Source: Naegleria gruberi (taxonomy: Eukaryota). From it: a DNA stretch of 64,000 nucleotides. Below the pieces are notes generated by a model. It was given only the letters and a program-made list of their open reading frames with translations. It ran no database searches and had not been told where the DNA came from. How positions within the stretch are numbered: position 1 is the first letter of the stretch; each line of letters begins with the position of its first letter. The stretch lies in assembly GCA_000004985.1 (NCBI GenBank), contig GG738909.1. The stretch is one strand, 5' to 3'. A program made the translations under genes and the position numbers. This document shows positions 21,105-58,877 of this stretch, in pieces.

Positions 21105-24100
21105 ATGGATATGCGTGGATTGTCAGTGTTCATTTCCGACATTAGAAAATGTTAGTATATTGTTTTTTTGTTGGTTTTTTAACTGGCTTTTGGATATGAT
21201 GTTTTTGTTGTTGTTGTTTAAATATTCTTGTCATTATTAATTATAATCGATCCTGATCGTATTGTTGTATTATAATTACTTCCTTTTCAACAATACCAAT
21301 ACGATATTTAACAATGATTTAACTTGTGGATTATACACTCAACAATAATAATACAATAACAAAATAATAACAACAACAAATACTTGCGCGATGATACAAT
21401 AATTGCTCGCTGCTCTATCCAACACCTCTATTGTTGGTCGTCATCGATAATAACAACAACAAAATTTTTATTAATATTACACAATAATTAACAGCAACTA
21501 CAAAGGAAGAAGAACAATCTAAAGTAGAAAAAGAATTAGCCAAGATCAGAGGTAAATTCAAGAATGGTGGAGCTCTTAAAGGATATGATCGTAAGAAGTA
21601 TATCTGTAAATTGCTCTATATTTACATGCTTGGTTATGAAATTGAATTTGGTCACATTGAAGCCGTCAATTTGTTGGCTTCACCAAATTACTCTGAAAAA
21701 CATATGGGTTATCTTGCTTGTTCATTGTTGTTGAACGAAAATCACGAAATGGTTACACTTATTACCCAATGTATGAAGAATGATTTGAATAGCAAAAATC
21801 CAAATGATCAATGTTTGGCACTTACAGCTATTGCCAACATTGGTGGTAAGGAACAAGCTGAAGCTCTTGCTCACGACGTACAAAAATTGCTCATCTCCAA
21901 CGAAACCAAATTGACTGTCAGAAAAAAGGCTGCTCTTACTCTCTTGAATTTGCATAGAAAATACCCAGAAAGTTTGCCTCCAGATTCTTGGTCCGAAAAG
22001 GTTATTGCTCTTATCAATGGTAGAGATCTTGGTGTTATTACCAGTGTTATGAGTTTAATTTTGGGACTTGCCGAAAAGAATCCAGAAGCTTATCAAGATG
22101 CAGTTTCAAAGACTGCTCGTTTATTGATGAAGTTGGTTTTGAACAGAGAATATTCTACATCATATTTGTACTACAAGATTGCTGCCCCATGGTTGCAAGT
22201 TAAAGCTTTCCAATTACTCCAATACTACCCAGTTCCAGAAGATAAGGCCATCTATGACTCTATCATCCAAGCTATTGAAAAAGTTATTCAAATTGCTAAG
22301 AAATCAAAGGAAACTACATCAAAGAGTGTGAGTCAAATTAATGCTGCTCACAGTGTTCTCTTCGAAGCAATGAATCTTGCTATTCACTACGATTCATCAA
22401 AGACAATCTTGGTGACAGCTTGTTCCATGTTAACTAAATATTTGAAGGATAGAGAAACTAACTTGCGTTATCTTGCTCTTGATACTCTCTCACGTATGGC
22501 TTACTCTCAATTCGATGAAGTTTTGGCTACTATCAGAAAGGAACAAGATACCATTTTACTTGCTTTGAAGGATCCTGATATCAGTATTAGAAGAAGAGCT
22601 CTCGATTTGTTGTACAGTATGTGTAACAGAGATAATGCTGGTGAAATTGTTGGTGAATTGCTCAACTATTTGCCACTTTCCGACTATGCTATCAGAGAAG
22701 AATTGGTTTTGAAGATTGCCATTCTTGCTGAAAAGTTCTCTGTTGATCTCACTTGGTATGTCGATGTTGTTCTCAATTTGATTTCCCAAGCTGGTGACTT
22801 TGTTGCTGATGATATTTGGCACAGAGTTATCCAAATCGTCACAAACAAGGGTGAAGAATTACAAAAGTACACTGCTCAAACTGTTTTCAGTGCTGTTTCT
22901 TCTCCAGCTGCTCATGAAACTTGTGTCAAGATTTCTGGTTACATTTTCGGTGAATTTGGTGACTTGATTGCTGATAATCCTCAAACTGATGCTTTTTCTC
23001 AATATGAATTGATCTTGTCCAAGTTCAACTTGTGTTCAACCACTACTAAGTGTCATTTGTTCAACTCTTTGATGAAGTTGTACAATTTGTATCCTGATAA
23101 CCAAGGACTCCGTGATAATATTAAGGATGTTTTCGAAAAGCACACCAATTCTTTCGATGCTGAATTGCAACAAAGATCTGCTGAATATTTGGCTCTCATC
23201 AATACTGGTGATGAAGATCTTATTCAAGCTGTCATGGATAACATGCCAATGTATCCAGAACGTGACTCTCAAGTCATTAAGAGATTGATGGAAAAAGAAG
23301 CTGCCAAGAAGCGTGGTGCTACTGGTACAGGAAGAGAAAACAACGAAGACGAAGAAGAAGAAAATCCAGATTTGGATGTTCAAGTACCTGAAACCAAACA
23401 AGGTGGAAATGATTTGTTGGATATGCTCGATATGGGTGGTTCTTCAAATAACAATAATGCTGGAGGATATAGTATGGATGACATTTTGGGAGGATTTGGT
23501 GGACCAGTTTCTCAACCACAACCAACTAATAATGGAGGAGGTTTGAGCATGGACGATATTTTGGGAGGATTTGGTGGACCAGTTACTCAACCACCTGTTC
23601 AACAACCACCACAAAACAATGTTGGTGATTTCTTTGGAGGAGGTGTTAACATTGCTGCTCAAGCTGCCAACATGGGTAAGCAAAAGAAGGAACAAAGAGA
23701 TACTACCGGATTCAACTTTGATGATGTTGTAGTTGCTAACAGAGATAATGCTCTTGAACAAAACGAACAAGTCCATCAAGACGCTGCTGTTAAGCATCAA
23801 GTTTTGCTCAAGTCTAACGAAGGTGTTGCCATTGAAGACGAACATTTGCAAGTCAAGATTAAGACTGAATATCACGGATGTAAGGGTAGACTTATTCTCC
23901 TCTATGGTAACAAGACTACTAATCCATTGACTCAATTCAAGGTTCACATTCTCGTTCCAAAGGAATTGGAAGCTCAAATTTCCAAGGTTCCACCAATGAT
24001 TTCACCAAAGACTCAAGTCCAACAATACGTTGACTTGGTTGCTAAGGGCCCATTCAGCCAATTGACTGATTTGGATTTGTACTTTGAAGCTAATCGTAGA

Positions 24101-24502
24101 TATTACAGATTCAACATCAAGTTGCCAATCGTTCCACACAAGTTTGTTGAACCATTGGTCATCCAAGGTGCTGAAAACTTCTTTAAACAATGGCACGCAA
24201 TTGGAAAGGAACAAGAAGTCCAAAAGATTTTCCCATGCACTCCTGTATATTCTGATGTAAATGCCTGTGCTAAGGTTTTGTCTGAAGGTTTCCGTTTGGC
24301 CATTTTGACTGGTATTGACAATCCAAGTAATATTGTTGCTGCTGGTTCTTTCTTCTATGATCCTGTTGGTAAGGTTAACGTTTTATTACGTCTTGAATAC
24401 AATGCTCCAAAGCAAGCTTACAGATTAACTGTCAAGGCTCAAGATGCCACTATTGCTCAACAAGTTTTCAATTACATCTTACAAGAACTCACCTCCCAAT
24501 AA
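21105..24502 (+). CDS. AP2A: AP-2 complex alpha-adaptin; join(21105..21150, 21495..24502).
   Basis: - Exon 1 encodes MDMRGLSVFISDIRK, the conserved alpha-adaptin N-terminus.
- Intron: GTTAGT donor at 21151, acceptor AG at 21493-21494 (about 344 nt), phase 1.
- Exon 2 continues STTKEEEQSKVEKELAKIRGKFK...YICKLLYIYMLGYEIEFGHIEAVNLL.
- HEAT/ARM trunk, Gly/Pro/Gln-rich hinge with an internal repeat (MDDILGGFGGPVxQP twice) and a C-terminal appendage. Confidence 0.8.
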
Positions 24503-24714: not shown

Positions 24715-27700
24715 TGATTGATTGTCAAGGTAATATTATCATTGTTTCTTGTTGGTGTTTTGGGTTCATTCAATGTTTCAAGATTTGCAGAATTTTTCTT
24801 TTGTAAAATGTTTAAACTTGTTCTCAACATGTCAGTGAAGGATGGAACAAGAGCTGGAGTGTGATGTTTCTCATGCAACATGTAAGCAATACATTCACCT
24901 TTTCCTTTCACATTTAAATGTCTTTCTTCAAAAGTGAAACCCAAATCATAAACTCTTTCGTAGGTTGATCTGGAAATTTGAATTCTTCCTGGAATTGAAT
25001 TAGATTCCATTCTTGAAGCTGTATTAATTGTATCTCCCCATAAATCCTATTTAATTAAATATTAAGATGAAGTATTGAAAATGTACATGTTAAAATGTTA
25101 AAATGTTGAAATTAAAAACATACATATGCAAATTTCTTCCTCCCAATAACACCTGCAATAACACTTCCAGTATTAATACCAACACGAATATTAATTTGTT
25201 CAGATGGATGTTTTCCTGATTTTGAATTAAATCTTTGTAAAACATCAAATGTATCAATGGAAAATCTCAAAATTCTTTCAGGATGATCTGATTGTGCATT
25301 CAATCCATGTAATCCACCCACACAAAAATATGAATCTCCAATCGTTTTAATCTTTTCCAAATTATACTTGTCTGTCAAATCATCAAATCCAATTACAATT
25401 TCATTCAACATTTGAACCAATTCAGATGCTTGAATTCCAGTACTCAATTTTGTAAATCCCACCATGTCACTAAAAAAACATGAAACATCATTGAATTTCT
25501 CTGCAATATAAGTTTCTCCTGATTTCAATTTACTTGCTACTGCACTTGGTAAAATATTCAATAATAATTCTTCAGAATGTTTCTTTTCTTCTGTCAATAA
25601 TGAATTATGTTTCTTCTCTGTTGTAATATCCTTAATGAAACAAGTTACAACACTTTGAGAATTGTGAAGAGTGGCAAAAATATTGACACGTGATGGGAAG
25701 CTTGTTTGATTCTTTCTGATACATTCCAATTCAATAGAATCTCCTTTCGAATCACCTCTTGCTGCATTCACCAACATTTCATCAATGAGGTTTTTAATTT
25801 TCGATTGCTCATTCTTTTCAAATAATTGATACAATGATCTTCCAATCGTTTCTGTTTGATTGTATCCAAATATCTTTTGAGCTGCTGGATTGAATATTTC
25901 AATATCAACCTTCTCTCCACTGCACATCACTGCTCCATCTACAGATGCATTCAAAATGCTTCGAACTTTTGAGTCACCTTCCCCTAAATTTGACTTCTTT
26001 TTGAGGAGGGAAGACAATGTATTTGGAATATGGTGATGTACAATGTAATTCTTGATATTTTCATTAGAATCCATTAACTCAATTGATAAATAGTTAAAAA
26101 GAAGACGAAGTTGTTGGACAGAGTTGGCATGTTGATGTAAGGACCAACGAATGGCAAGTGAAATGGAGATAATTGCAATAAATCCAACGAAACTGAATGC
26201 GTAGACAAGTTCTTCATCAGTTATGGCAGCATCTTTTGAAAAAACAGTAGAAAAATCAATCAATTGATCTGAAATGGCTCTGGAAAGATGGAAATGTTTA
26301 ACAAACGTTTCGAACAGCTTCAAGTTATTAATTTTTCCGTTTTCATCCATTAGCTCCATTATTTCATTGGAAATTGTGACGAAATTTGTAATCATATCAT
26401 CAATTCCCATAACGCACGAATGATTACCATCTTCTTTAAACATGTCAGTCAATGTACAATTTTCCTGACCTGCCACGAGTAAATTTACATCATCAAATTT
26501 TCCAAGTATGGTATTTTCTGGATTCTCTCCAATGGATGTTCCATAAATACATAAATTCCAATGGTTTTTCAAGTCACTTGATTTTTCAGTAACATAATGC
26601 TTTGGATTGGATGTAAAATTGTATAAATTAGAAACTCTGAAGAAAGCATCATTGTTGGAGCGAAATCCAGATATAATATACTTCTCAGTGATAAAATTAC
26701 TCAAATATTGAATATCTTCAAAAGTTTGGAATGATTCTTTCATAATAACATAGGATCCGTAACATTGATTCACATTTTGTAAAGTTTCCAATAAGAATAG
26801 CCCACAACAAACTGAAACAATTAGAGAGAGAATAAGAGCCAATACAACTACAACACTCCTTGGATATTTCCAAACACTCTTGACTGGATGAGTTGATGTA
26901 TCATCATTGACTACCTTACTCAATTCATGGAATAATCTTCCTGCATCATTTTTTGAAACATTCTTCTCAATGAGAAGAACTATCTTTGTTATAACAGATA
27001 GATCTAACTTAGAGTAGAATACATAAAGAGATGTATAGAGGAAGTAGACTGTCACAATGATGGAAAAGTAAATGATAAAAGTATTAGTAATTAGTTGAGT
27101 TTCATCCTTTGAACTGGAAACAAAATTCACACAAAAATCAGAATAGGCAGTAACCATTCTCTCGGAATTAAAGTACTGCACATGATTAGAATAAAACTCT
27201 AGAACAACTAACTTACCAATAACATAAAGGGATAACTTGACAGAAAACTCTCTAGGTCTGCTAGTCCAAATTTAGAAATAGTTTCAGAGTGTGTATAGAA
27301 TAAATTTGTAATATCTGCAATAGTGGTATTAGTAGTGGTCGAAATGTTATAAACCTTATCGATTTCTGTTGCTGGCCATGAAGTTGGTAAATTGAAAGTG
27401 TAATAAATTTCATGATATTCAGAGTACATTTCCTGTGTGAATTTTCCGTCATGAACCAATTCTCGCACTGATTTCAAAATGTCCCTGTAAGTATTAATGT
27501 GTTCTAACATTTCTTCATGATAATGTTCCAAAGAAGTATATCCATACTTGGACATGACATTCATCCATTCAACCATTGAGTGATTGTACAAATATGTGAT
27601 TGGTTGAAAAGCTCTCATACTAGACATGATCTGAACAGAGGCGCCAACTGGAGCACAAGCTGTTTCCACTATTTTAACAGTGCCTGAAATATAGGATGAG

Positions 27701-30087
27701 AATGAAACACTCAAAGCCAAACTAACACTCAAAAACAAGATGGAAAATAAGACAAATAGAGAGAAGAGGAAAACTTGGAGAGTGTGTCTGTGTGGAAGGC
27801 TCAGTGAAGTTCTGAATACGTTTTCCTTTCTAAATTCTGGATTATTCTCAATTCCATTGAATTCTGGATTGGTTTCTGCCTCTTTCTGATCGCCATAGAA
27901 TGAACTGCTCTCACTTCTAATGTCGTGTTCCTGGAGATGGATACCAATATTTGGGCCTTCTTGTGTTGGAACTATTCTGTTTTTAAACTTGGACTTTTGA
28001 TTCCTCTTCTTTCTTAATTGAGCATTTCTTTTGGTTTCTTCCTCTTCCAAACTTGATGCTTCAGCATACAGCTCTTGAGCAGCATCCTTATTAAACTTGA
28101 ATTCTTCAATGTATTTGGCAAAATTTCGTAATAAATTCTTGTCATTCTTATAAATTGCCAACATGTTCAAAAACTTGGTTTCACATTCATTGGAAATAAT
28201 TCCCATTCTTACAATGATTGATTCAATCTTATCCCTCAAGACACATTCCTGGAGCATTTCCTTCCAGAACATTCTGTGAAGGGCTTTCAATTCATTTTGT
28301 CTCCTTTCGAGAATGAACATTACTTCACTCATTTCTTCAGTATTTTTGGCATTTGGATTAATTTGATGAACTATAATGTCAACTTCCTTCTGTTTCAAAT
28401 AGATGAGGAATCTATACCATGTATTTGGTCTCTTTTTTATGGCTCTCCTTAAAATTCCTTTGGAAAATGTTGTGGCATTGACATCATTTACGAGACAATT
28501 TGATGCTATAGAACTTGATAAGAGAAGAATATCATTATCGAGTTGTGAGTTGAGTGATGATATACCTCTAACAAGAGAAAGAGACATTTTCAGATTGCTC
28601 AACATATTTGGATTGCTGGAAAGAGTTGGATCTTCTTCATCTGTTGGAATCTTTTCCTTAATGGAGAATTTCAAAAAAAGTTTCAGATAATTCAACTTTT
28701 TGGATTCTAGAAAGTATTGGTAAATATTAATGGAATCCTTCTCGATTGCCTTTTCCAGTAAATCAGGGAAACCATTATTAGATTCATTTCTAATACCTTC
28801 AATTACAATAAATCGAACACTTCTAATCAAAATTCTTGTAATCGCCTCCATTACCATCATTCCAACAAAAAAAGAGATGATAATCATTGCCAAAGTCATT
28901 CCAGCTAGACCAATTCCCAGCACATTATCAACTGACTTGTAAATTGCCGAAAGATTTGGATTATTTACAACGCCACTAATTAGAGAACCAAAACTTGAGA
29001 AGATCCTTGCAGATAACACTCCAACCATAATGGAATTCTCAAATCTCTTAAAATATGGAACGTTTTTCGAAAAACCAATCATTAAACCAATCGAAACTAT
29101 CAAATGCACAATCGATCTGATAAATGCATACTGAGGAGGAATCACATAATGTGAAAGAATTTGGAATTGAGTACAAATCATTGTTCCAATAAGGAAAATT
29201 GGATGATCAGAAGTGAATGGAGAAAAGTGTTGGGGATGACAATTCGTCACAATTAATAGAGAAAAACATGATAATATCATTTGAATGATTATTCCAATAA
29301 TCATGATGGCCATGAAGGCAATATTAATAGTTGAATAACATTCAATGTTCTGGTTTGAATATTGTAAAAAACGGTTGAGAACTGAGACAGAACCAAGATT
29401 ACAATCAAGTGGTGTTGTCAATAGGTAAACAGCTGGAAGAGAAACGAGTAGAAAAAGTTTCGAACCAAGGGCCAAACCTTTCTTTGTCCATTTCAAATAT
29501 TGAGAAGTTGTTTTGTAAGCATACACACTCCAAACCAAGTAAACAATAAATAACAGCTCTACAGCTATAACCACAAACGCTAGAGCCAACGAACCTATAT
29601 AAGGTAACCTTTCGAATGATAAAGTCAAAGGATAGTTCAATACAGAAAAAACCCATGTTCCCCACTCTCCGTATTTCATTTCCATTCCAAGATTTGGCAA
29701 GAATATACCAATCCAAAATACATAAGTATGAAATAGTAAACTAATCAAATAGGAATATAGACCTTCTCTTAATTGTGCCTCTTGCATGAAGAATATAAAA
29801 TCCATAAGTTGATTTCTGAGCTTGATTCCAATCGAAATCTCAGAGCCAGTAATATCTGTTGTTGAATATTTGGAATGTTGGGACGAGAAGGATACATTTG
29901 ATGAGCTAGAGGTATGTTGTCCATGAACTGAGGGAATATTCAGATAACTTGTTGGAGTCGTCTGGTTTCTAGCAACGGTTGACCCACGACGTGAAGTACT
30001 AGCAATAGAGATTGAATCCTCTTCTATGGCAATATTGTTGTTGTTAGTATTATTCAATTGATTTATACTAGCATTGGGATGCAACAT
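24678..30087 (-). CDS. Multi-TM, PAS-domain, class III adenylyl/guanylyl cyclase, copy 1; complement(join(24678..25046, 25124..27175, 27217..30087)), about 1763 aa.
   Basis: - Two clusters of TM helices, a PAS-like segment (ILNASVDGAVMCSGEKVDIEIFNPAAQKIFGYNQTETIGRSLYQLF), then the cyclase domain (FSDMVGFTKL, KIKTIGDSYFCVGGL, DLWGDTINTASRMES).
- Intron 27176-27216 (41 nt, GTAAGT..CAG, phase 0).
- Intron 25047-25123 (77 nt, GTATGT..AG, phase 0) splits FAY|DLWGDT.
- Paralogous to 47986-53257. Confidence 0.8.
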
Positions 30088-47985: not shown

Positions 47986-50900
47986 ATGACATCTCTCAAT
48001 GTTAATGTGTTTGACGATAGAGGTTCAAACAGTTCTCAAAGTAATTCGAGGGTGCTGCTCTCTCCACCTCAGGGAGCCAACAATTACTTACTAATTCCAA
48101 CCAGTAACTATGCAGGATCATCAGTATGTTCCTCTGACAGACATTCCAAAACTGACATTTCAGGTTCTGAAGTTAATGCGGTAACAAAACTGAAGAACTC
48201 GACTTTGGAGTTTGTACTCTTCATACAAGACAACCAAGTGAAGGAGGGAATCTATGGTTATGTGATAACCTTGTTGATTCACTTGTACATGTTTTGGATT
48301 GGAATTTTTCTACCAAATCTTGGACCAGAAATGATGTACGGAGATTGGGGAACATGGATTTTCTCAGTACTCAACTATGCTATTACTCTCTCATTTGAAA
48401 GGATCCCTTATAAGGGAGGTATTGTATTGGCTTTTATTGGAGTAGGTATTGTATTGGTATTTGTAATTCTATTGATCTGGACAATCTTTGCCTACAAGAC
48501 AACCTCCCAACATTTAAAGAACTCGAGAAGAGCTATTGCCATCTTTTCCAAAGTATTTCCATTCATATCAGTACCTCTCTTGTACTTGATGACATTCTCT
48601 CTTGATTGTAATTATACAGTAAGCTCATCAAATCTGAATAGATTTGAATTCTATTCCCATGAGGTGATCCAATGCCACGATACTAGCAATATTATATTTG
48701 TGGTGGTAATGATCTTGGCCATCCTGTTATTGATTATACTCAATGTATTCTCCATGCTCATTGTACCAAACTGCCATCCTCAAAATATAGCTCCATTTGT
48801 GACCGATAATCCAGTTTTCATGAGCTTGTTAGTTGCCTTCAATCTGTGGCAACTCTTTTTACACTTTATCATTCCAACACAATACTCTTTTATGAGAGCT
48901 ATTGTTCATAGTGTTGGATCTATTATTTTAATTATAATTTTTGCCAAGCTGATTCCATTCATTAGAAGAATTGAGAATAGTATTGTATTTGGTTGCCTGT
49001 TGGCTAGATTAGCTTCGAGTATTGGAGCTATTGTAACTTCTATTGTAAATAACCCATCCCTATCAAAGATACTGCCATCGGTGGATAATACACTTGGTGT
49101 TGGACTTGCAGGTCTAACTATTGGTTTGATTATTATTGGTTTTGTGCTTGGTTTCTCCCTTATGGAATTGTATACGAGATTTATTGTGAGATCTATTAGA
49201 AACTTTGTTCTGGAATGTATTCAATCAGATAATGATGAAACAAATCTAGATTCCAAAGAAACTGAAAAATACATTGAGAAAGAAGCACAAATTATTTATC
49301 AACAGTTGGTTGAGTCAAGAAAATTAAGGCACCTTAGAATATTCTTTAAATTTTCTATGAAATTCAAAGAAAAATATCCAACGGAAAAATCAGAAACGCC
49401 CACACAGCACAATCTACTCGATATTTATATTTGTATTGCTCTGATTAAGGGGTTCTCTTCCAATAACCAATTAGATAATGAGATTATCCTTCTCTCTAGT
49501 ATGATTATTGCAAATTATTTGCCAAACGAGGTCAATTCTACAACATTTGCTCAAGGACTTTTGAAGAAAGCTTTTAAAAGAAGACCATCCACTTACTATA
49601 ATTTATTAATTAGTCTAGCTCAAAAACAAGTAGAAGCAACGGTCTATCAAACCAATCCAGAGAGCAGAAACAATGTTGAAATGGCCAAGCTTATTGGTCA
49701 CTTAGAAAGAAGACAGGATGAATTACGAGCACTTCACAGAGCTTTCTGGAAGGAAATCATGCAAGAAAATATCAATCATGAAAAATGTGAATCTATTATT
49801 GTAAGGATTGGGATATTGTCTCATGAATGTGAAACTAAATTCAAGAATTTAATGCACATTTACAAAAACGACAAGACAGTTCTTCGATGTGTTGCTAAAT
49901 ATGTAGAATCTTTTAAATTCAATAAGGAAGCTGCTCAGGAATTATATTCTGAAGCAACAACAATTGAAGAAGAGGATTCCAAACGAATGAATGCCTCCTC
50001 TAAAAGAAGAATTAAAAAGAACCAAAAGAACAGAGTGCATCCTCAACAAATCAGTCACGCTTTTGAGACGTTATCTTATGGTGATGCTAATCATCATGAG
50101 GTAGAGTCCACTGTTGTAGGAGATTTGAATAACGATTTTGGTGGTGTTGAGAATAATCCAGAATTGAAGAAGGAGCTTCTGTTCAGGAATGCATTGGCCA
50201 TCTCACATAAGAATCATTCACATCTCACAATGTTTTTCATTTTCATTGTGCTATCCTTGCTAATTTTGGTTTCAACATTAGTAATGAGCTTGATGTTTTC
50301 GAATTATGTTACTGAGAGCGTACTTGTTGTGGATACTGCCTGTACACCGATTGCATCTGCTATTCGAATTGTTAGTGGAACAAGAAGTTATCAGAGCTCT
50401 CTATTGTTGTACAGTTCCAATTCATCAGCTTGGCCTTCATTATTGGCAGAATATGGCTACTCGAGCCTTTCTGAATTCAAGAAAGCTCACAAGAAAGAGC
50501 TAAGGGATAATATTGATTACTTAATTCTATTGAAAGAGCTAGCACAAACAGCCAAGTTTACCACTGATATGTACTCTGAATTTCATGAATACTACTATAG
50601 CTTTAATCAACCAAAGGCAAATACTAATGGTTTGGAAAAGATTTACAACTCTACCACAGCTATCAATATTACCATTGCAGATATTACTAATTTGGCTATA
50701 ACCTATTCAGAGCAGATTTACAAATTTGAAGATGAGGATTATCTACATACTTTCAGCAGTTATCCTTTCATGATACTATTCAACAATAGGAATATTATGA
50801 CAGCAGCTTATTCTTCATTCTGTTACAAATTTGTTGAGGAATCCAAGAGCTATACCAAGACGATTTCCAATACTTTTATTATTTACTACTCTTGCTCAAT

Positions 50901-53257
50901 TGTTGTTTATTTTACTTACACTGCTATTTATTTGTGCTTTGCAAGATTGGATTTGTCTTTTTTGAAAAAGCTTATTGTTTTATTGGAAAAGAATGTGTCA
51001 AAGCATGAAGCAGGAAAAATGTATCACAATTTGGGCAAGCTAGTCCAAGATGACAGCTCTGTAAGACCGGCCAAGAACTCTGCTTTATACCCTAGGAATG
51101 TTGTGGTAGGATTGGGAATTGTGACAGCAATCTGTGTTGCACTCTGTGCTGGTTTGTTCCTAGCTCAAACTCTCAGCAATTCTCAATACAGCTTTGAGTC
51201 CTATGTCACCATGAGGGATGCTTTCAATGCATTAGAAAACTCCCAATATATTGCAGAAGCGATAACTGAGGAATTCATTAATTTAAAAATTGCTGACAAA
51301 ACATTTATTAATGGATTGGTTTCATCTAATACTGAGCGTTCTGAATCTATTCAAGCATCAATTAAGAAATTAAGATTCTATTGGAATATGTGCATGTATG
51401 GGTCTAATTATTACCCAGATGAGACTCTTGTGATTGGTCTTTTCGAAAAGACTGATTTGATGATAAAGGGAGAAGCTAATTGTACATTTGAAAAGATGAT
51501 TTCACATAATTGCAGCATTGGTGTTGATAAATTGATCACAACTTACACGACTAAAGCCACACAACTCACAGAAGATATTGATCTCAAATCAACAACATTT
51601 GAATCATTATTTGATGACTATTTGGTAGTTAGTTTTTTCTCTACCTATGTAAGCAATTCATTACTGTCATTTTCAGATGTATTTGCTATGGCTGCCTCTG
51701 TTCCATCAGACAAGTTGGTGATTCCATTTGCCATTCTTGGATTTTTGACTTTGTTTATATTCTCGATTGGTATTTACATGTCAATGGGAAAGTATTTCAA
51801 TTCAGTCCAACAACTGCGTCTTCTTTTCAATTATCTACCTCTAGACTTGATGGACTCAAACGAAAATATTAAGAATTATATTGTACATCATCATCTTCCT
51901 GACTCATTCTCAAACATTTTTAGAAGAAAGAAAGGTTCTTCATCAGAGGGCGACTCAAAAGTTCGAAGCATTTTGAACGCATCTGTAGATGGAGCAGTGA
52001 TGTGCAGTGGAGAGAAGGTTGATATTGAAATATTCAATCCAGCAGCTCAAAAGATATTTGGATATAATCAAACAGAAACGATTGGCAGATCATTGTATCA
52101 ATTATTTGAAAAGAATGAGCAATCGAAAATTAAAAACCTCATTGATGAAATGTTAGTGAATGCAGCAAGAGGTGATTCGAAAGGAGATTCTATTGAATTG
52201 GAATGTATCAGAAAGAATCAAACAAGCTTCCCATCACGTGTCAATATTTTTGCCACTCTTCACAATTCTCAAAGTGTTGTCACTTGTTTCATTAAGGATA
52301 TTACAACAGAGAAGAAGCATAATTCATTATTGACAGAAGAAAAGAAACATTCTGAAGAATTATTATTGAATATTTTACCAAGTGCAGTGGCAAGTAAATT
52401 GAAATCAGGAGAAACTTATATTGCAGAGAAATTCAATGATGTTTCATGTTTTTTTAGTGACATGGTTGGATTTACAAAATTAAGTACTGGAATTCAAGCA
52501 TCTGAATTGGTTCAAATGTTGAATGAAATTGTAATTGGATTTGATGATTTGACAGACAAATATAATTTGGAAAAGATTAAAACGATTGGAGATTCATATT
52601 TTTGTGTGGGTGGATTACATGGATTAAATGCACAATCAGATCATCCTGAAAGAATTTTGAGATTTTCCATTGATACATTTGATGTTTTACAAAGATTTAA
52701 TTCAAAATCAGGAAAACAACCATCTGAACAAATTAATATTCGTGTTGGTATTAATACTGGAAGTGTTATTGCAGGTGTTATTGGGAGGAAGAAATTTGCC
52801 TATGTATGTTTTTAATTTCAACATTTTAACATTTTATTGTGTAAATTGTACATTTTCAATATTTCATATTAATATATTAATTAAATAGGATTTATGGGGA
52901 GATACAATTAATACAGCTTCAAGAATGGAATCTAATTCAATTCCAGGAAGAATTCAAATTTCCAGATCAACCTATGAAAGAGTTTATGATTTGGGTTTCA
53001 CTTTTGAAGAAAGACATTTAAATGTGAAAGGAAAGGGTGAATGTATTGCTTACATGTTGCATGAGAAACATCACACTCCAGCTCTTGTTCCATCCTTCAC
53101 TGACATGTTGAGAACAAGTTTAAACATTTTACAAAAGAAAAATTCTGCAAATCTTGAAACATTGAATGAACCCAAAACACCAACAAGAAACAATGATAAT
53201 ATTACCTTGACAATCAATCAAGAAGCCTACCTATCTCCAAATAATACTTTGGAGTAA
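47986..53257 (+). CDS. Multi-TM, PAS-domain, class III adenylyl/guanylyl cyclase, copy 2; join(47986..52803, 52889..53257), about 1728 aa.
   Basis: Same architecture as copy 1. Intron GTATGT at 52804, acceptor AG at 52887-52888 (85 nt), splitting FAY|DLWGDTINTASRMES. There is no intron at the position of the copy-1 41-nt intron. Confidence 0.8.
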
Positions 53258-54579: not shown

Positions 54580-56351
54580 TTAATTTCCCACCAAAGAATA
54601 GTTCAATATTTTCAATTTTTTAGAAATATTAGAATTGACTATTTGGGAAATATCCAAATTAGAATGAATCACATTCAATTCAGTTAAAGTATTTCCAAGA
54701 TTGTCCACCAATTTGGATAGATCAGAAATATTCAAGTTTTTAACTCCATTCAGTGAAAGGCTTTGCAATTTTGGAGGAAATTTACAATCAGAAATCGCTG
54801 AAAGATTGCTGAAATTACAAAAATCCATTTTGAGAATTTTCAAATTTCTAAATTGTTGATTCTCAAAGAAATATTCAAAGTCCTCTTCTTTGAGAAGGTA
54901 ATTATTGCTCAAATCTAAATATTCCAAACTTTTAAATCTGTCATCCTTAACTAGATGTTGAAAAATATCGCTTGTCAAGAAACATGATTGTAAATCAATA
55001 AATTTCACATATTTGAAGGGAGTTTTCATAAACAGTTCAAGATTGGGTTTCTTGACCCTAATTCCGCCTTCATTCATAATTCCATTAAATTCACGGCAAA
55101 CTAATCTCATGTTCAGAATGTCATCCAAATCAAAGAATTCTGAAACAGAAAGAATTTCGTCTCGTTTCAAAGGTCTTGCTGTCCAGATAATTTCAATTTC
55201 TGGTTTGGAAAGAATTGCATCCATTAAATTGGTGAATCGAGTGGTTGGAATATTGACTTTCCAATTTGGATCAACTTTATCCAACCATTTGTCCACTTCT
55301 GAAGGTGTTGGAATGAAATTCAGATCGATCATATCAAATGCTGGTCTTCCAACAACTTCATTAAACATTCCAACTAGAGATTCTCTATGGAAACAACAAT
55401 CAACAACAAAGTGCTTGGCAATTTTAGATTCTCGATCCAAATTAAGAAACTTTTCAATGATAAAGTCTTTCACCTCATTTGGATCTGAATCATTTCCCTT
55501 AAAATCCTTAAAGAATGATGAAAGCTTGTATCCTCTCCTAATCTTTTCTCTCAACACTTCAAATTTTGTGAAAATTACATAAAGTCTCTTGATTTCCTTT
55601 CTTTCCAAAACACTCTGAAAAAGTCTATACGAATCGTCAAATCTATTCAAATCCGAAAGTTCATAACACAATTCATTGCACTGAGATAGAGAAATTACAA
55701 AGCAATGTTTACATTCTGAGCTCGTAATTAAATCTTCCCATCTACTTCTCTCACATCTCTGTCCGCCAGTATCGAAACATGTAACTCCACAAACAGTTCT
55801 TTCAACTATTCCAACAGTTTTCATATAGATTCTAGCATAATCCTTTGGTATTAATCTCTGTTTCATATACCTTTCTAATACATTTCTTTGATTGAAATAC
55901 GAAACTGTTTCACTAATTTCTGAAATACAATTTCCTTCAATTTCCTTTTCATGAATACATTTCTGAAATCCAGAATCGTGATACATTAAATAGAAATATT
56001 CATGTATTTCATCATCCAATTTCTTATTAGGTATTCTATTCTTTACCAGTGCAGAATCTTGAACTTTATCAAATGCTTGTCCAAATTTAGTAAAATCATT
56101 CCTGGATGGATTTATATCGGATAGGAATAGTTTAAAACACCAGGGAAGATGATTATATTTTGTGGTGTTGCAACGGGAAATTGTAGGGTTGTTCAATCCA
56201 AGCAAGGTATTAAACAATGTTGCTAAAATATAGAATATTCGAATCCTTTAGAATATTGTAATTTAATTTCTTACTTTTTCCTGATCCACCACTTCCCAAG
56301 AAAACCTTTGCAAAATAACTATGATTGTTAAATTGTGATTTTACTTACCAT
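54580..56351 (-). CDS. G-alpha-like GTPase domain fused to an F-box-like motif and leucine-rich repeats; complement(join(54580..56222, 56275..56305, 56349..56351)).
   Basis: - P-loop VFLGSGGSGKTT.
- About 120-aa helical insertion.
- Switch I RIYMKTVGIVER; switch II DTGGQRCERSRW.
- CFVISLSQ matches the G-alpha IIFCVALS block.
- NKxD is replaced by TKFE, and the TCAT region by VVDCCF.
- F-box-like LSVSEFFDLDDILNMRLVCREFNGIM, then LRRs to the C-terminus.
- The first two small exons are inferred from splice motifs (introns 43 and 52 nt); the ATG-only first coding exon is tentative. Confidence 0.55.
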
Positions 56352-56550
56352 CTTGTCGTGTGATGCAAAATCTTCTCCCTCATTATGTGTTCATTTTTTT
56401 TGTGAAGTTTCGTCCAAGTTCTTAGAATGTTCCAAACTGACCAGTGGTGGCTACCGTCAATTATTAACAATAGTTCCATTGTTGACCTGATGTTTACTTT
56501 ACAAAAATTTCACAATAAATTGACTTGAGAAATTCAACAAATATTTATCC

Positions 56551-58877
56551 TTATTCAATTGTAGTCTTCATGGTGCTTTCCATAAATTTCAAGTAGATTT
56601 GAGTTGTAATCTCAGTCAATTCATCAAATATATCTTCAAAAGTTGGTCTCTCTTTTGGATCAATGTGTGTACATTTCATTCCCAATAAATGAATCTTTTG
56701 AGCTTGTTCTTGAGTGAGGAAATTGAACCTCTCCACCAATTGAACTACTGAAATAAAACTTCCAAAAACATCTGCCATATTGGCAGGTCTATATCCAGAA
56801 ATGAGTGTGTGCATTGTGACTCCAAAACTGAAAATATCCAAAGCTCTAAACACAAACACTGTGTCTTGTTGCTTATTTCTCAATTCTGGTGCCATGTAAT
56901 ATAATGTGCCAGCAGTGGTGCAGGAATAGGTTTCAGGTTTGTCCACTGTGAGAGAAACATCAAAATCTGACAATTTGACATTATCAATAATCTCAACTCC
57001 ATCAATTCTCATCTTTTTCACCAAAATATTATTTGGTTTAATGTCATAATGAATCACATTCTTGGAATGTAAATATTTCATTGTATCTGAAACCTTGACA
57101 AGGGAGAATAATATTTGAACAAGTTCAATAATTGTTGGTTCAGTTATTGAAAATGAAGATAATGAATCATCCATCTTTTCCATGAATAAATGTTCGATTC
57201 CATCTTGATTATAGTGATGTAACAATTTTACAACACCATCATGTTCACAAATTCCATTCATAATTTCAATCTCACTCGTTCCAATATTATTAGAAATTTT
57301 CTCTGCAACAGGAACATTATTCATCAACACTGAATATACAGCTCCATTTGCCCCATTTCCAAGATATGTTCTATTGGCTCTGTTAATGACAGCCCCTTCA
57401 ATGACTGTGGCTCTATTTAAAGTGATAGTTGAAAGAGTTTCTCTTTTCTTCAATCTGCAAGATAAAATATATGACATATTATATGAAAAATATTCTCCAA
57501 GAGACTTGAACTCATCCAATTTCCTATTCAGCATTAAATCAGCTTGTGGAGCCAACATATATTTGAGAATGCTATTATTTGTGATGATTTCTGATTGATT
57601 GTCCACAAGTTTTGGCAAAGTGTAAATGTTAATGAAATATCTGAATGGCTCAATCTCCCCTTCTGACAATAATTCAACCAATGATTCTGCTTCAACACCT
57701 GAACTGAGTAATATTCTGACATCATGGTGATTTCTCTAATTGTAGATGCGAGTTTTTATAAGTATTGGAAATTTTTACAAATAACAAACCTTAATTAGGT
57801 GATGAGCAATTAATAATCTCATAATTTTTGTAAAATTATTAGTTTTGGCAATTTCAAATGGTGTTTCTCCCTTTCTTGGTGTGAATATTGATTTTTTAGC
57901 AAACAAACTTACACACTAATAACCATAAATGGTATTCCAAATAATTTACACTCAAAAACTTACTGACTATTCAAAAAGTTAGTTGGTTATCTTTAATAAA
58001 TACATACACACTGTGAAATGGTTGAGAAATGATCGATTACGAAATCAACTTACATTCTTTTAATTGTTAATGCTTCATTGTGGAAATGAAATTAAACTTA
58101 CATGCTTTAAAATAATTAATTTGAAAAGTAATTGAAATACTTACACACTATAAAAACGTCAGTAAACTCCAATAGATCACTATCAACTTACACACTAATC
58201 AAATTATTCCTCTGCAAAACAACTAATAAGCATACTTACTCCCTAAAATCTCTTATTCGAAACTGTATATGCTAAACTTTACTTACTCCCTAAAACCATT
58301 CAAAATCTCAAATCTACAAATCTACTTACTCCATTCTTATAATCAACCAATGGCATACTCTTCAGTAAATATTTCACAACTTTAACTTGTCCATATTTGC
58401 AAGCAATGTACAACAAAGTTCTCGCTGGAGGATAGTTCTTATTCTTCTCTGGAATTAAAACATCAAGAAGTGATGGTAAATCTTTCATTCGACTCAATTC
58501 TTTCACATTTCCTTGTTTCACCCAATAGGCAGCCAATAATGCATTGTACATTTGTGGAAACAATCGAATAGTTGTTAGTGCTGGACTCCATTGGGATGGC
58601 TGCACCAATAGTTGGAAAATAGGATGAGATGGTTGTCGGAAAGGATAATTGGAAGGAAAAGAAAAAGTGAAAACAAATGGCTCCTCCTTTCAAATTCCAA
58701 TAATTCATTCATCATTGATCAATAAATTGATAAATCTATTCGAAATAAACTCACATCAACAATTTTAAAAGTTACTGTCCATTCCGAAAGTTCATTGTCA
58801 TTCTTAGGTTCGACAGTAAAGCCAGGATGTGTCAGTTGTTTAATATCTCGCAATTCTCTCTGTACTCTCTTCAACAT
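56551..58877 (-). CDS. UEV (catalytically inactive E2-like) - ankyrin repeat - protein kinase gene. Exons: 58755..58877, 58330..58686, 57790..57870, 56551..57735. Between the second and third exon lies a 459-nt tract of ten mini-introns.
   Basis: - Exon A: MLKRVQRELRDIKQLTHPGFTVEPKNDNELSEWTVTFKIVD (E2 N-terminus).
- 68-nt intron (GTGAGT..AAAG).
- Exon B: EEPFVFTFSFPSNYPFRQPSHP...SQWSPALTTIRLF. It has the E2 core, including the invariant SQWSPALT, but lacks the HPN...Cys segment. ANK repeats follow.
- ANK exon: GETPFEIAKTNNFTKIMRLLIAHHLIK.
- 54-nt intron.
- Kinase exon: LGNGANGAVYSV, HYDIKPNNILV, DFD, APE. Confidence 0.55.
57871..58329 (-). other. Tandem array of 10 canonical mini-introns (GTAAGT...AG, 40-48 nt) separated by exactly 3 nt, lying in an intron position of the UEV-ANK-kinase gene.
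   Basis: - On the plus strand, ACTTAC (or ACATAC) occurs at 57907, 57958, 58002, 58048, 58096, 58139, 58186, 58234, 58281 and 58324.
- Each is followed by three nucleotides and then CT. Read on the minus strand this is AG-NNN-GTAAGT.
- Donor-to-donor spacing is 43-51 nt. Confidence 0.6.

Follow-up and report, generated by a model that had tools for sequence, protein, structure and literature searches.

Does the 459-nt gap between two ankyrin-repeat exons of a Naegleria gruberi kinase gene leave the transcript as one intron or as ten? The gene lies on the minus strand of a 64,000-nt stretch of contig GG738909.1 (assembly GCA_000004985.1), which was analysed as a whole and is called the window here; its G+C content of 33.7% agrees with that of N. 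gruberi (PMC8296547). Its gap, at 58329-57871, consists of ten intron-like units of 40-48 nt that are spaced by single codons. Judged from the sequence, and with moderate confidence, each unit is a minimal U2-type intron of its own and the nine spacers are single-codon exons, an arrangement probably created by an old, stepwise duplication of one codon together with an intron.

Anatomy of the array

GTAAGT opens nine of the ten units and GTATGT opens unit 8, which leaves 59 of 60 donor bases matching GTAAGT. AG closes all ten units (20 of 20 bases intact), and each AG lies exactly 3 nt from the next donor. The donor-to-donor distance is 43-51 nt, with a mean of about 46. Read in order, the nine 3-nt spacers are GGA, GGA, TGT, TGT, CAT, AAT, TGT, TCA and TGT. 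GGA is also the codon that flanks the array on both sides, and some junction strings are identical over 12-16 nt (TTTTAGGGAGTAAGTA twice, TAGTGTGTAAGT three times). An earlier note on this DNA had given the array these boundaries, period, splice signals, 3-nt gaps and spacers, all of which are borne out. The units are as follows, the higher coordinate of each being its donor position.

57871-58329, minus strand: array of ten units and nine spacers, 459 nt
58290-58329, minus strand: unit 1, 40 nt, GTAAGT...TTTTAG, then spacer GGA (58287-58289)
58243-58286, minus strand: unit 2, 44 nt, GTAAGT...TTTTAG, then spacer GGA (58240-58242), with the same junction string TTTTAGGGAGTAAGTA as junction 1/2
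58195-58239, minus strand: unit 3, 45 nt, GTAAGT...GATTAG, then spacer TGT (58192-58194)
58148-58191, minus strand: unit 4, 44 nt, GTAAGT...TACTGAC...TATAG, then spacer TGT (58145-58147)
58105-58144, minus strand: unit 5, 40 nt, GTAAGT...TTAAAG, then spacer CAT (58102-58104)
58057-58101, minus strand: unit 6, 45 nt, GTAAGT...TAAAAG, then spacer AAT (58054-58056)
58011-58053, minus strand: unit 7, 43 nt, GTAAGT...TCACAG, then spacer TGT (58008-58010), the same in a sister strain
57967-58007, minus strand: unit 8, 41 nt, GTATGT...AACTAAC...GAATAG, then spacer TCA (57964-57966)
57916-57963, minus strand: unit 9, 48 nt, GTAAGT...TTATTAG, then spacer TGT (57913-57915)
57871-57912, minus strand: unit 10, 42 nt, GTAAGT...AAGAAAG, with exon 3 directly after

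Unit 1 also contains an 8-nt tandem repeat in three copies (58303-58325; on the minus strand roughly GTAGATTT GTAGATTT GAGATTTT), which is the sole match of Tandem Repeats Finder (TRF) in the array.

All nine spacers are 3 nt long and in phase 0-0, and both flanking exons are in phase 0, so that any donor i can be joined to any acceptor j ≥ i without loss of frame. The exon after the array is thus in frame with the one before it, as the earlier note had stated. Its further claim, that any subset of the mini-introns could be removed without changing the frame, does not stand: only four of the ten unit lengths are divisible by three and eight of the ten units contain an in-frame stop, so retaining a unit is not frame-neutral, and only the skipping of micro-exons is.

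Introns of this size are workable, because one of 41 nt is confirmed elsewhere in the window. Once this GTAAGT...CAG intron at 27216-27176 is taken out, the protein aligns with its intron-less paralogue (47986-52815) without a gap. The other confident introns in the window measure 48-121 nt, and GTAAGT is their commonest donor. Each of the ten units has the donor, acceptor and length of a U2-type intron. The description of the units as size-compliant, canonical-looking mini-introns (40-48 nt, GT...AG) therefore agrees with the confirmed example. The linked proposal that a long intron is processed here in size-compliant pieces finds no support, given that the mean intron length in the published N. 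gruberi annotation is 203 bp (PMC8296547) and that nothing speaks against the splicing of long introns. That annotation is imperfect, one example being the AP-2 alpha model described below.

The two paralogues just mentioned encode TPR/PAS/adenylate-cyclase proteins (25047-30087, minus strand, and 47986-52888, plus strand) and differ by one intron, that at 27216-27176, which only the former possesses. Ahead of the last cyclase exon, each of them has an intron of the form GTATGT...AAATAG (25123-25047 and 52804-52888).

Chance, unit bodies and a metagenomic analogue

The array cannot be a product of chance. Of the string AGNNNGTAAGT, 1.12 copies would be expected in the 64-kb window and nine are present, a count that none of 100 shuffles reached; eight of the nine lie inside the array. 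The longest chain of units is ten, whereas 300 first-order Markov simulations of 64 kb gave chains of one (293 runs) or two (7 runs). The minus strand of the window holds 21 copies of GTAAGT, nine of them within the 459 nt of the array. The spacers depart from randomness as well: TGT occurs four times and GGA twice, and given the local base composition, four or more identical spacers among nine would turn up with P of about 0.0055. Together with the identical junction strings, this suggests that the 3-nt spacers are constrained too.

The unit bodies behave differently from the signals that bound them. TRF found no tandem period of about 46 nt in the array, and pairwise local alignment scores between the bodies were not above those of shuffles. 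A MAFFT alignment of the units has its conserved columns at the unit ends, where strict invariance is limited to T2, T6 and the terminal AG because two units are misaligned at the 5' end. The recognisably similar units of a tandem repeat or minisatellite are therefore missing, and the remark that the units share little beyond their splice signals proves accurate. A recent tandem duplication is not supported, given the dissimilar bodies in all three analyses. Derivation of the units from intronised former ankyrin repeats is rejected, since the array, when translated, resembles the ankyrin consensus no more closely than shuffled sequence does. No Rfam family matched the array, whose units are also too short to host small RNAs, and no unusual RNA fold joins its ends (z-score +1.15, slightly less stable than shuffles).

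All splice signals are kept, and the spacers are non-random, among bodies that are unlike one another. This speaks for ten introns that can each be used separately and against a recent minisatellite. If the units share descent, their bodies are saturated with change yet their signals are intact, which implies selection on the internal sites. If they lack common descent, every one of them is an independent intron. Under either scenario, the pattern indicates that the internal splice sites are, or recently were, used.

A second array of this type was recovered from a pattern scan of metagenomes. The pattern is also matched by (GTAA)n microsatellites, which were filtered out afterwards. Among the matches listed after filtering, seven were near-identical minisatellites or coding repeats and one was a true analogue, contig Ga0207864_1037532 (L009). 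As a negative control, a TAG-based pattern was run against viral and prokaryotic collections, where the matches were all either near-identical tandem repeats or chance chains of three units.

L009 is a contig of an unrelated, very AT-rich eukaryote. At 1111-1316 on its plus strand it carries five units of 35-44 nt, all of the form GTAAGT...TAG, with the spacers AAA, TGG, AAT and AGT. The array sits between an ankyrin exon ending in ...ADVNAKN and one starting with TPLHFASENGH..., the two exons being near-identical, and a further GTAAGT closes the next repeat, where the contig ends. Its position within the ankyrin repeat is the same as that of the N. gruberi array. The repeat comprises 29 residues from the exon and K-W-N-S from the spacers, exactly 33 in all. 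When the four codons are included, the Ank_4 alignment is gapless (50/50) and the Ank_5 score is 92.4 bits; their omission leaves a four-residue deletion and lowers the Ank_5 score to 74.5 bits. As the four codons are needed to restore the 33-residue repeat, the single-codon exons of L009 are very probably translated.

Host gene, sister strain and other genes of the window

The host gene comprises four exons, and its intervening sequences of 68, 459 (the array) and 54 nt are all in phase 0. Its parts other than the array are listed here.

58755-58877, minus strand: exon 1 (ATG at 58877; MLKRVQREL...KIVD), N-terminal part of a UBC/UEV-like fold (Pfam UQ_con)
58687-58754, minus strand: intron 1, 68 nt, GTGAGT...AAAG, phase 0, which joins two open frames and continues the UBC-like motif ...FPSNYPF.QP
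58330-58686, minus strand: exon 2 (EEPFVF...LLKSMPLVDYKNG), rest of the UBC-like region and first ankyrin repeat (gene model and Pfam)
57790-57870, minus strand: exon 3 (GETPFEIAKTNNFTKIMRLLIAHHLIK), start of the second ankyrin repeat (Pfam Ank_2 across the junction)
57736-57789, minus strand: intron 3, 54 nt, GTTTGT...ATTAG, phase 0 (gene model)
56551-57735, minus strand: exon 4 (RNHHDVRILL...TTIE; stop at 56551-56553), linker and protein kinase domain (Pfam Pkinase, 4.3e-32)

The protein measures 581 aa without the micro-exons and 590 aa with all nine, and Pfam Ank_2 spans the array junction in both forms. UQ_con matches partially, over residues 4-61, with 26-27.8 bits that are borderline against the cut-off of 27. 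With the ankyrin match over the junction and the kinase domain, this is in line with the UEV-ankyrin-kinase architecture read from the sequence before. The array is inserted at the tip of an ankyrin hairpin loop, the most length-tolerant site of the fold. The 581-aa form is one residue below canonical ankyrin spacing, and one added residue gives a gapless Ank_4 alignment. The evidence at the protein level neither requires nor excludes the insert and is compatible with either form.

The host gene was not found among the N. gruberi proteins of the database searched, where the best match is the paralogue P0002 (41% identical, kinase domain only). The gene is probably unannotated, and the array possibly defeated gene prediction. 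A HMMER search for an orthologue of exon 2 against 1.84 billion representatives gave multi-ankyrin proteins only, which match residues ~88-115. The exon 4 product is 97% identical to the metagenome protein P0001, encoded on a genomic fragment.

A sister strain, 98% identical in DNA at the locus, is represented by two independent metagenome assemblies from one sample. Because these assemblies hold units 6-10, the array is no assembly artefact. All exons are open in both strains, and the ratio of non-synonymous to synonymous differences (pN/pS) is 0.47 across exon 4, which points to some constraint on the host gene. With its exons open in two strains, this pN/pS ratio and intact kinase and ankyrin domains, the gene looks functional. 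In unit 8, ACTAAC is ACTAAT in the sister strain. The two assemblies break within the array, L001 starting at window position 58088 (unit 6) and L002 at 57909 (the start of unit 10); the breaks could reflect low coverage or heterogeneity of the array.

A gene at 54583-56350 on the minus strand encodes a G-alpha domain fused to a leucine-rich-repeat-like tail. Its start codon stands directly before a short GTAAGT intron (AG ATG GTAAGT, 56343-56353), which accounts for the one AGNNNGTAAGT match that does not lie in the array. From this G-alpha-like gene, 174 nt are missing in the sister strain (58 codons, in frame; window 55414-55587 against L001 ~2497-2501). The missing stretch is flanked by two CAAG microhomologies and encodes ...RLYVIFTKFEVLREK...SKIAK.

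Elsewhere in the window, an AP-2 alpha open reading frame of 963 codons occupies 21611-24502 on the plus strand. The public N. gruberi protein (884 aa) is 100% identical to it over only 59%, whereas the N. lovaniensis AP-2 alpha is 87% identical and aligns over 100% of the 963-codon frame. The public N. gruberi model probably contains wrongly called introns.

Splicing, origin and rival explanations

We propose that the N. gruberi spliceosome recognises short introns across the intron, which would pair each donor with the nearest downstream acceptor. The units would be removed one after another; two full spliceosomes cannot sit on neighbouring 46-nt units together. The default mRNA would retain the nine codons and thus place GGCCHNCSC in the hairpin loop between ankyrin repeats 1 and 2 of a 590-aa protein. 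It is predicted to contain the full-inclusion string GATTATAAGAATGGAGGAGGATGTTGTCATAATTGTTCATGTGGAGAAACACCATTTG, with the core ...AATGGAGGAGGATGTTGTCATAATTGTTCATGTGGAGAAACA..., and to encode the peptide ...DYKNGGGCCHNCSCGETPFEIAK. Donors that pair with later acceptors would give shorter in-frame loops, down to the 581-aa form, as by-products or as regulated isoforms. A GGCCHNCSC linker made through 3-nt micro-exons was one of the options in the earlier note; it is viable, and L009, whose codons restore a 33-residue repeat, strengthens it.

The array probably originated through old, stepwise duplication of one codon plus an intron, begun by a direct repeat, GGA(G), on either side of the intron. 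Since then the unit bodies would have diverged fully, and selection would have preserved the splice signals and apparently also the codons. Tandem intron duplication had also been suggested. Its recent form fails on the dissimilar bodies, and an old duplication of codon and intron is the best guess, from the GGA-GGA-GGA and TGT-TGT runs. Introns can be gained by internal tandem duplication of an AG|GT segment, where a short copy bounded by direct repeats creates new donor-acceptor pairs. The array resembles this model in having GGA(G) on both sides and in its runs of GGA and TGT, which fit stepwise copying of codon and intron. It differs in that the model copies exon sequence and its copies stay similar, whereas here whole introns would have been copied that now share their signals only.

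Several observations weigh against the separate splicing of the ten units. Four of the ten units have a strict YTRAY branch-point motif, whose A lies 10-12 nt from the 3' end, and the mean for shuffles is 4.0, although YTRAY may not be the consensus of N. gruberi. Examples are CTGAC in unit 4 (11 nt from A to the 3' end), TTAAT in unit 5 (11 nt) and TTAAC in unit 6 (10 nt), along with ACTAAC in unit 8. A 3-nt exon puts the U1 site over the preceding acceptor, which hinders splicing in exon-definition systems. The ankyrin profile does not need the nine residues: spacing is canonical with 0-1 extra residue, and Ank_2 scores 34-42 bits for 0-9 added. P0002, the closest N. gruberi paralogue, has a short loop without a Cys-rich insert at the array position, and the databases searched hold no transcript-derived protein of the host gene. 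The array differs from that of the sister strain at 4 of 218 nt, near the synonymous rate, which at such a short distance gives no direct sign of constraint, and the only donor that differs is weakened there (unit 9, GTAAGT to GTAGGT). Furthermore, L009 is a single case, and its closest database match is only 51% identical.

Some of these points fit another account, in which one ordinary 459-nt intron with its donor at 58329 and its acceptor at 57871 is excised in a single step, leaving the 581-aa protein, and the internal sites are unused relics of a tandem expansion. The mRNA would then have the junction GATTATAAGAATGGA|GGAGAAACACCATTTG and the full-skipping string GATTATAAGAATGGAGGAGAAACACCATTTG. 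A protein within one residue of the ankyrin profile, the short loop of P0002 and the weakened donor of unit 9 in the sister strain all accord with this, and the annotated mean intron length shows that long introns are possible (PMC8296547). We nonetheless regard it as unlikely. The bodies are random, yet nearly every donor base and every AG is intact, and unused sites should have decayed as well. An intron-definition spliceosome would also have to skip nine consensus donors and nine acceptors at the ideal spacing of 40-48 nt, and the spacers are non-random. The array might instead be a regulated generator of loop-length variants, whose donor-acceptor pairings yield in-frame isoforms with 0-9 extra residues, in the manner of the schistosome variable micro-exon genes. 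Each pairing of a donor with a later acceptor is in frame, the insertion site is a length-tolerant loop, and exon skipping has been detected in N. gruberi transcriptomes generally (PMC6142364). This account overlaps our preferred reading, from which it differs only in giving the variation a function. It is improbable to about the same degree as the single intron: no regulatory elements are evident, the 64 kb contain a single such locus, and nothing hints at a benefit of variation for an intracellular kinase.

Far less credible is the repeated insertion of a mobile intron-like element, such as an introner or a miniature inverted-repeat transposable element (MITE), into its own 3-bp target-site duplication. 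Re-insertion would fit the fixed 3-nt gaps and the identical runs (GGA three times when the flanking exon codon is counted, two successive TGT). Yet the units have no sequence in common and are only 40-48 nt long, and the spacers are not all equal. A mobile element would also be expected as a multi-copy family of similar sequences with terminal repeats and target-site duplications, and within the 64 kb the units do not form one; inspection by eye, with no similarity search and no search for terminal inverted repeats, showed no relatives among the window's remaining GTAAGT-led sequences. The least probable account of all treats the array as unrelated to splicing, that is, as a chance AT-rich minisatellite, a pseudogene remnant or a plus-strand DNA element of ACTTAC repeats. 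The AT-rich region, the 8-nt TRF repeat in unit 1 and the failure to find the host gene among the N. gruberi proteins searched speak for it. Against these stand the far-exceeded chance expectation, the missing repeat signal at about 46 nt and the flanking exons, which are open, in phase and conserved in two strains. The array moreover has no Rfam match, no unusual fold and no ankyrin coding remnant.

Separate splicing of the ten units, the reading we prefer, has partial precedents. Exons of 1-3 nt with strongly conserved GTRAGT donors have been experimentally validated in plants (PMC8831610), and 3-nt exons are also documented in animals. The ultra-short plant micro-exons (1-15 nt, including the 1-nt exons of APC11 and VPS55 and adjacent pairs) resemble the array in being below the usual exon threshold, in their GTRAGT donors and in being missed by annotation (PMC8831610). 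They differ in being single or paired, in lying between longer ordinary introns and in being proven by RNA (PMC8831610), whereas in the array ten minimal introns would alternate with nine successive 3-nt exons.

Zero-nucleotide ratchet points in Drosophila and recursive-splicing (RS) exons in vertebrates share with the array stepwise removal and the adjoining of an internal acceptor and a GTAAGT-type donor. Ratchet points, however, are AG|GT sites that leave no exon and lie in introns of many kilobases. In the array, 3 nt stand between AG and GT, a codon would be left at each step and the whole measures 459 nt. Recursive-style splicing, as had been suggested for the locus, thus does not apply in the Drosophila sense. 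The micro-exon genes of Schistosoma likewise contain runs of symmetric exons of 3n length (3-81 bp) whose skipping is frame-safe, and the nine spacers of the array form such a run. Those genes have introns of up to 5 kb and encode small secreted proteins, for which micro-exons supply the greater part of the coding sequence; the array has minimal introns and is a local insert in one loop of an intracellular kinase, contributing 27 of ~1770 coding nt. Fungal stwintrons are similar in that successive standard splicing reactions remove a complex intervening sequence, but there a splice signal of the outer intron is split by the inner one and no residue stays in the mRNA. The units of the array are side by side and not nested, with ten intact donors and acceptors and none interrupting another.

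In the literature on tandem introns, 3-nt exons, micro-exon clusters, stwintrons and intron duplication, we found no description of back-to-back minimal introns with single-codon spacing. The array is composed of known parts, and their combination is new among the literature searched. If the units are spliced singly, the gene would have nine consecutive 3-nt exons, a run without counterpart in the literature searched, and would stretch current ideas on the minimal distance from an acceptor to the next donor. It would also be a rare object for research on intron gain, with ten introns at one site whose spacing and spacer codons record their multiplication. Such arrays defeat gene finders and read aligners, and similar cases may be systematically missed.

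More tentatively, chains of minimal introns with single-codon spacing could be a recurrent architecture in protists. They would arise when an intron copies itself and one codon next door, by local duplication or re-insertion, and would be kept because the codons are translated. We consider this possible but doubtful. If it is true, the arrays of N. gruberi and L009 would be its first two members. Arrays of this kind would be footprints of intron gain in progress and the most extreme use of micro-exons so far, and they could vary the length of an ankyrin loop.

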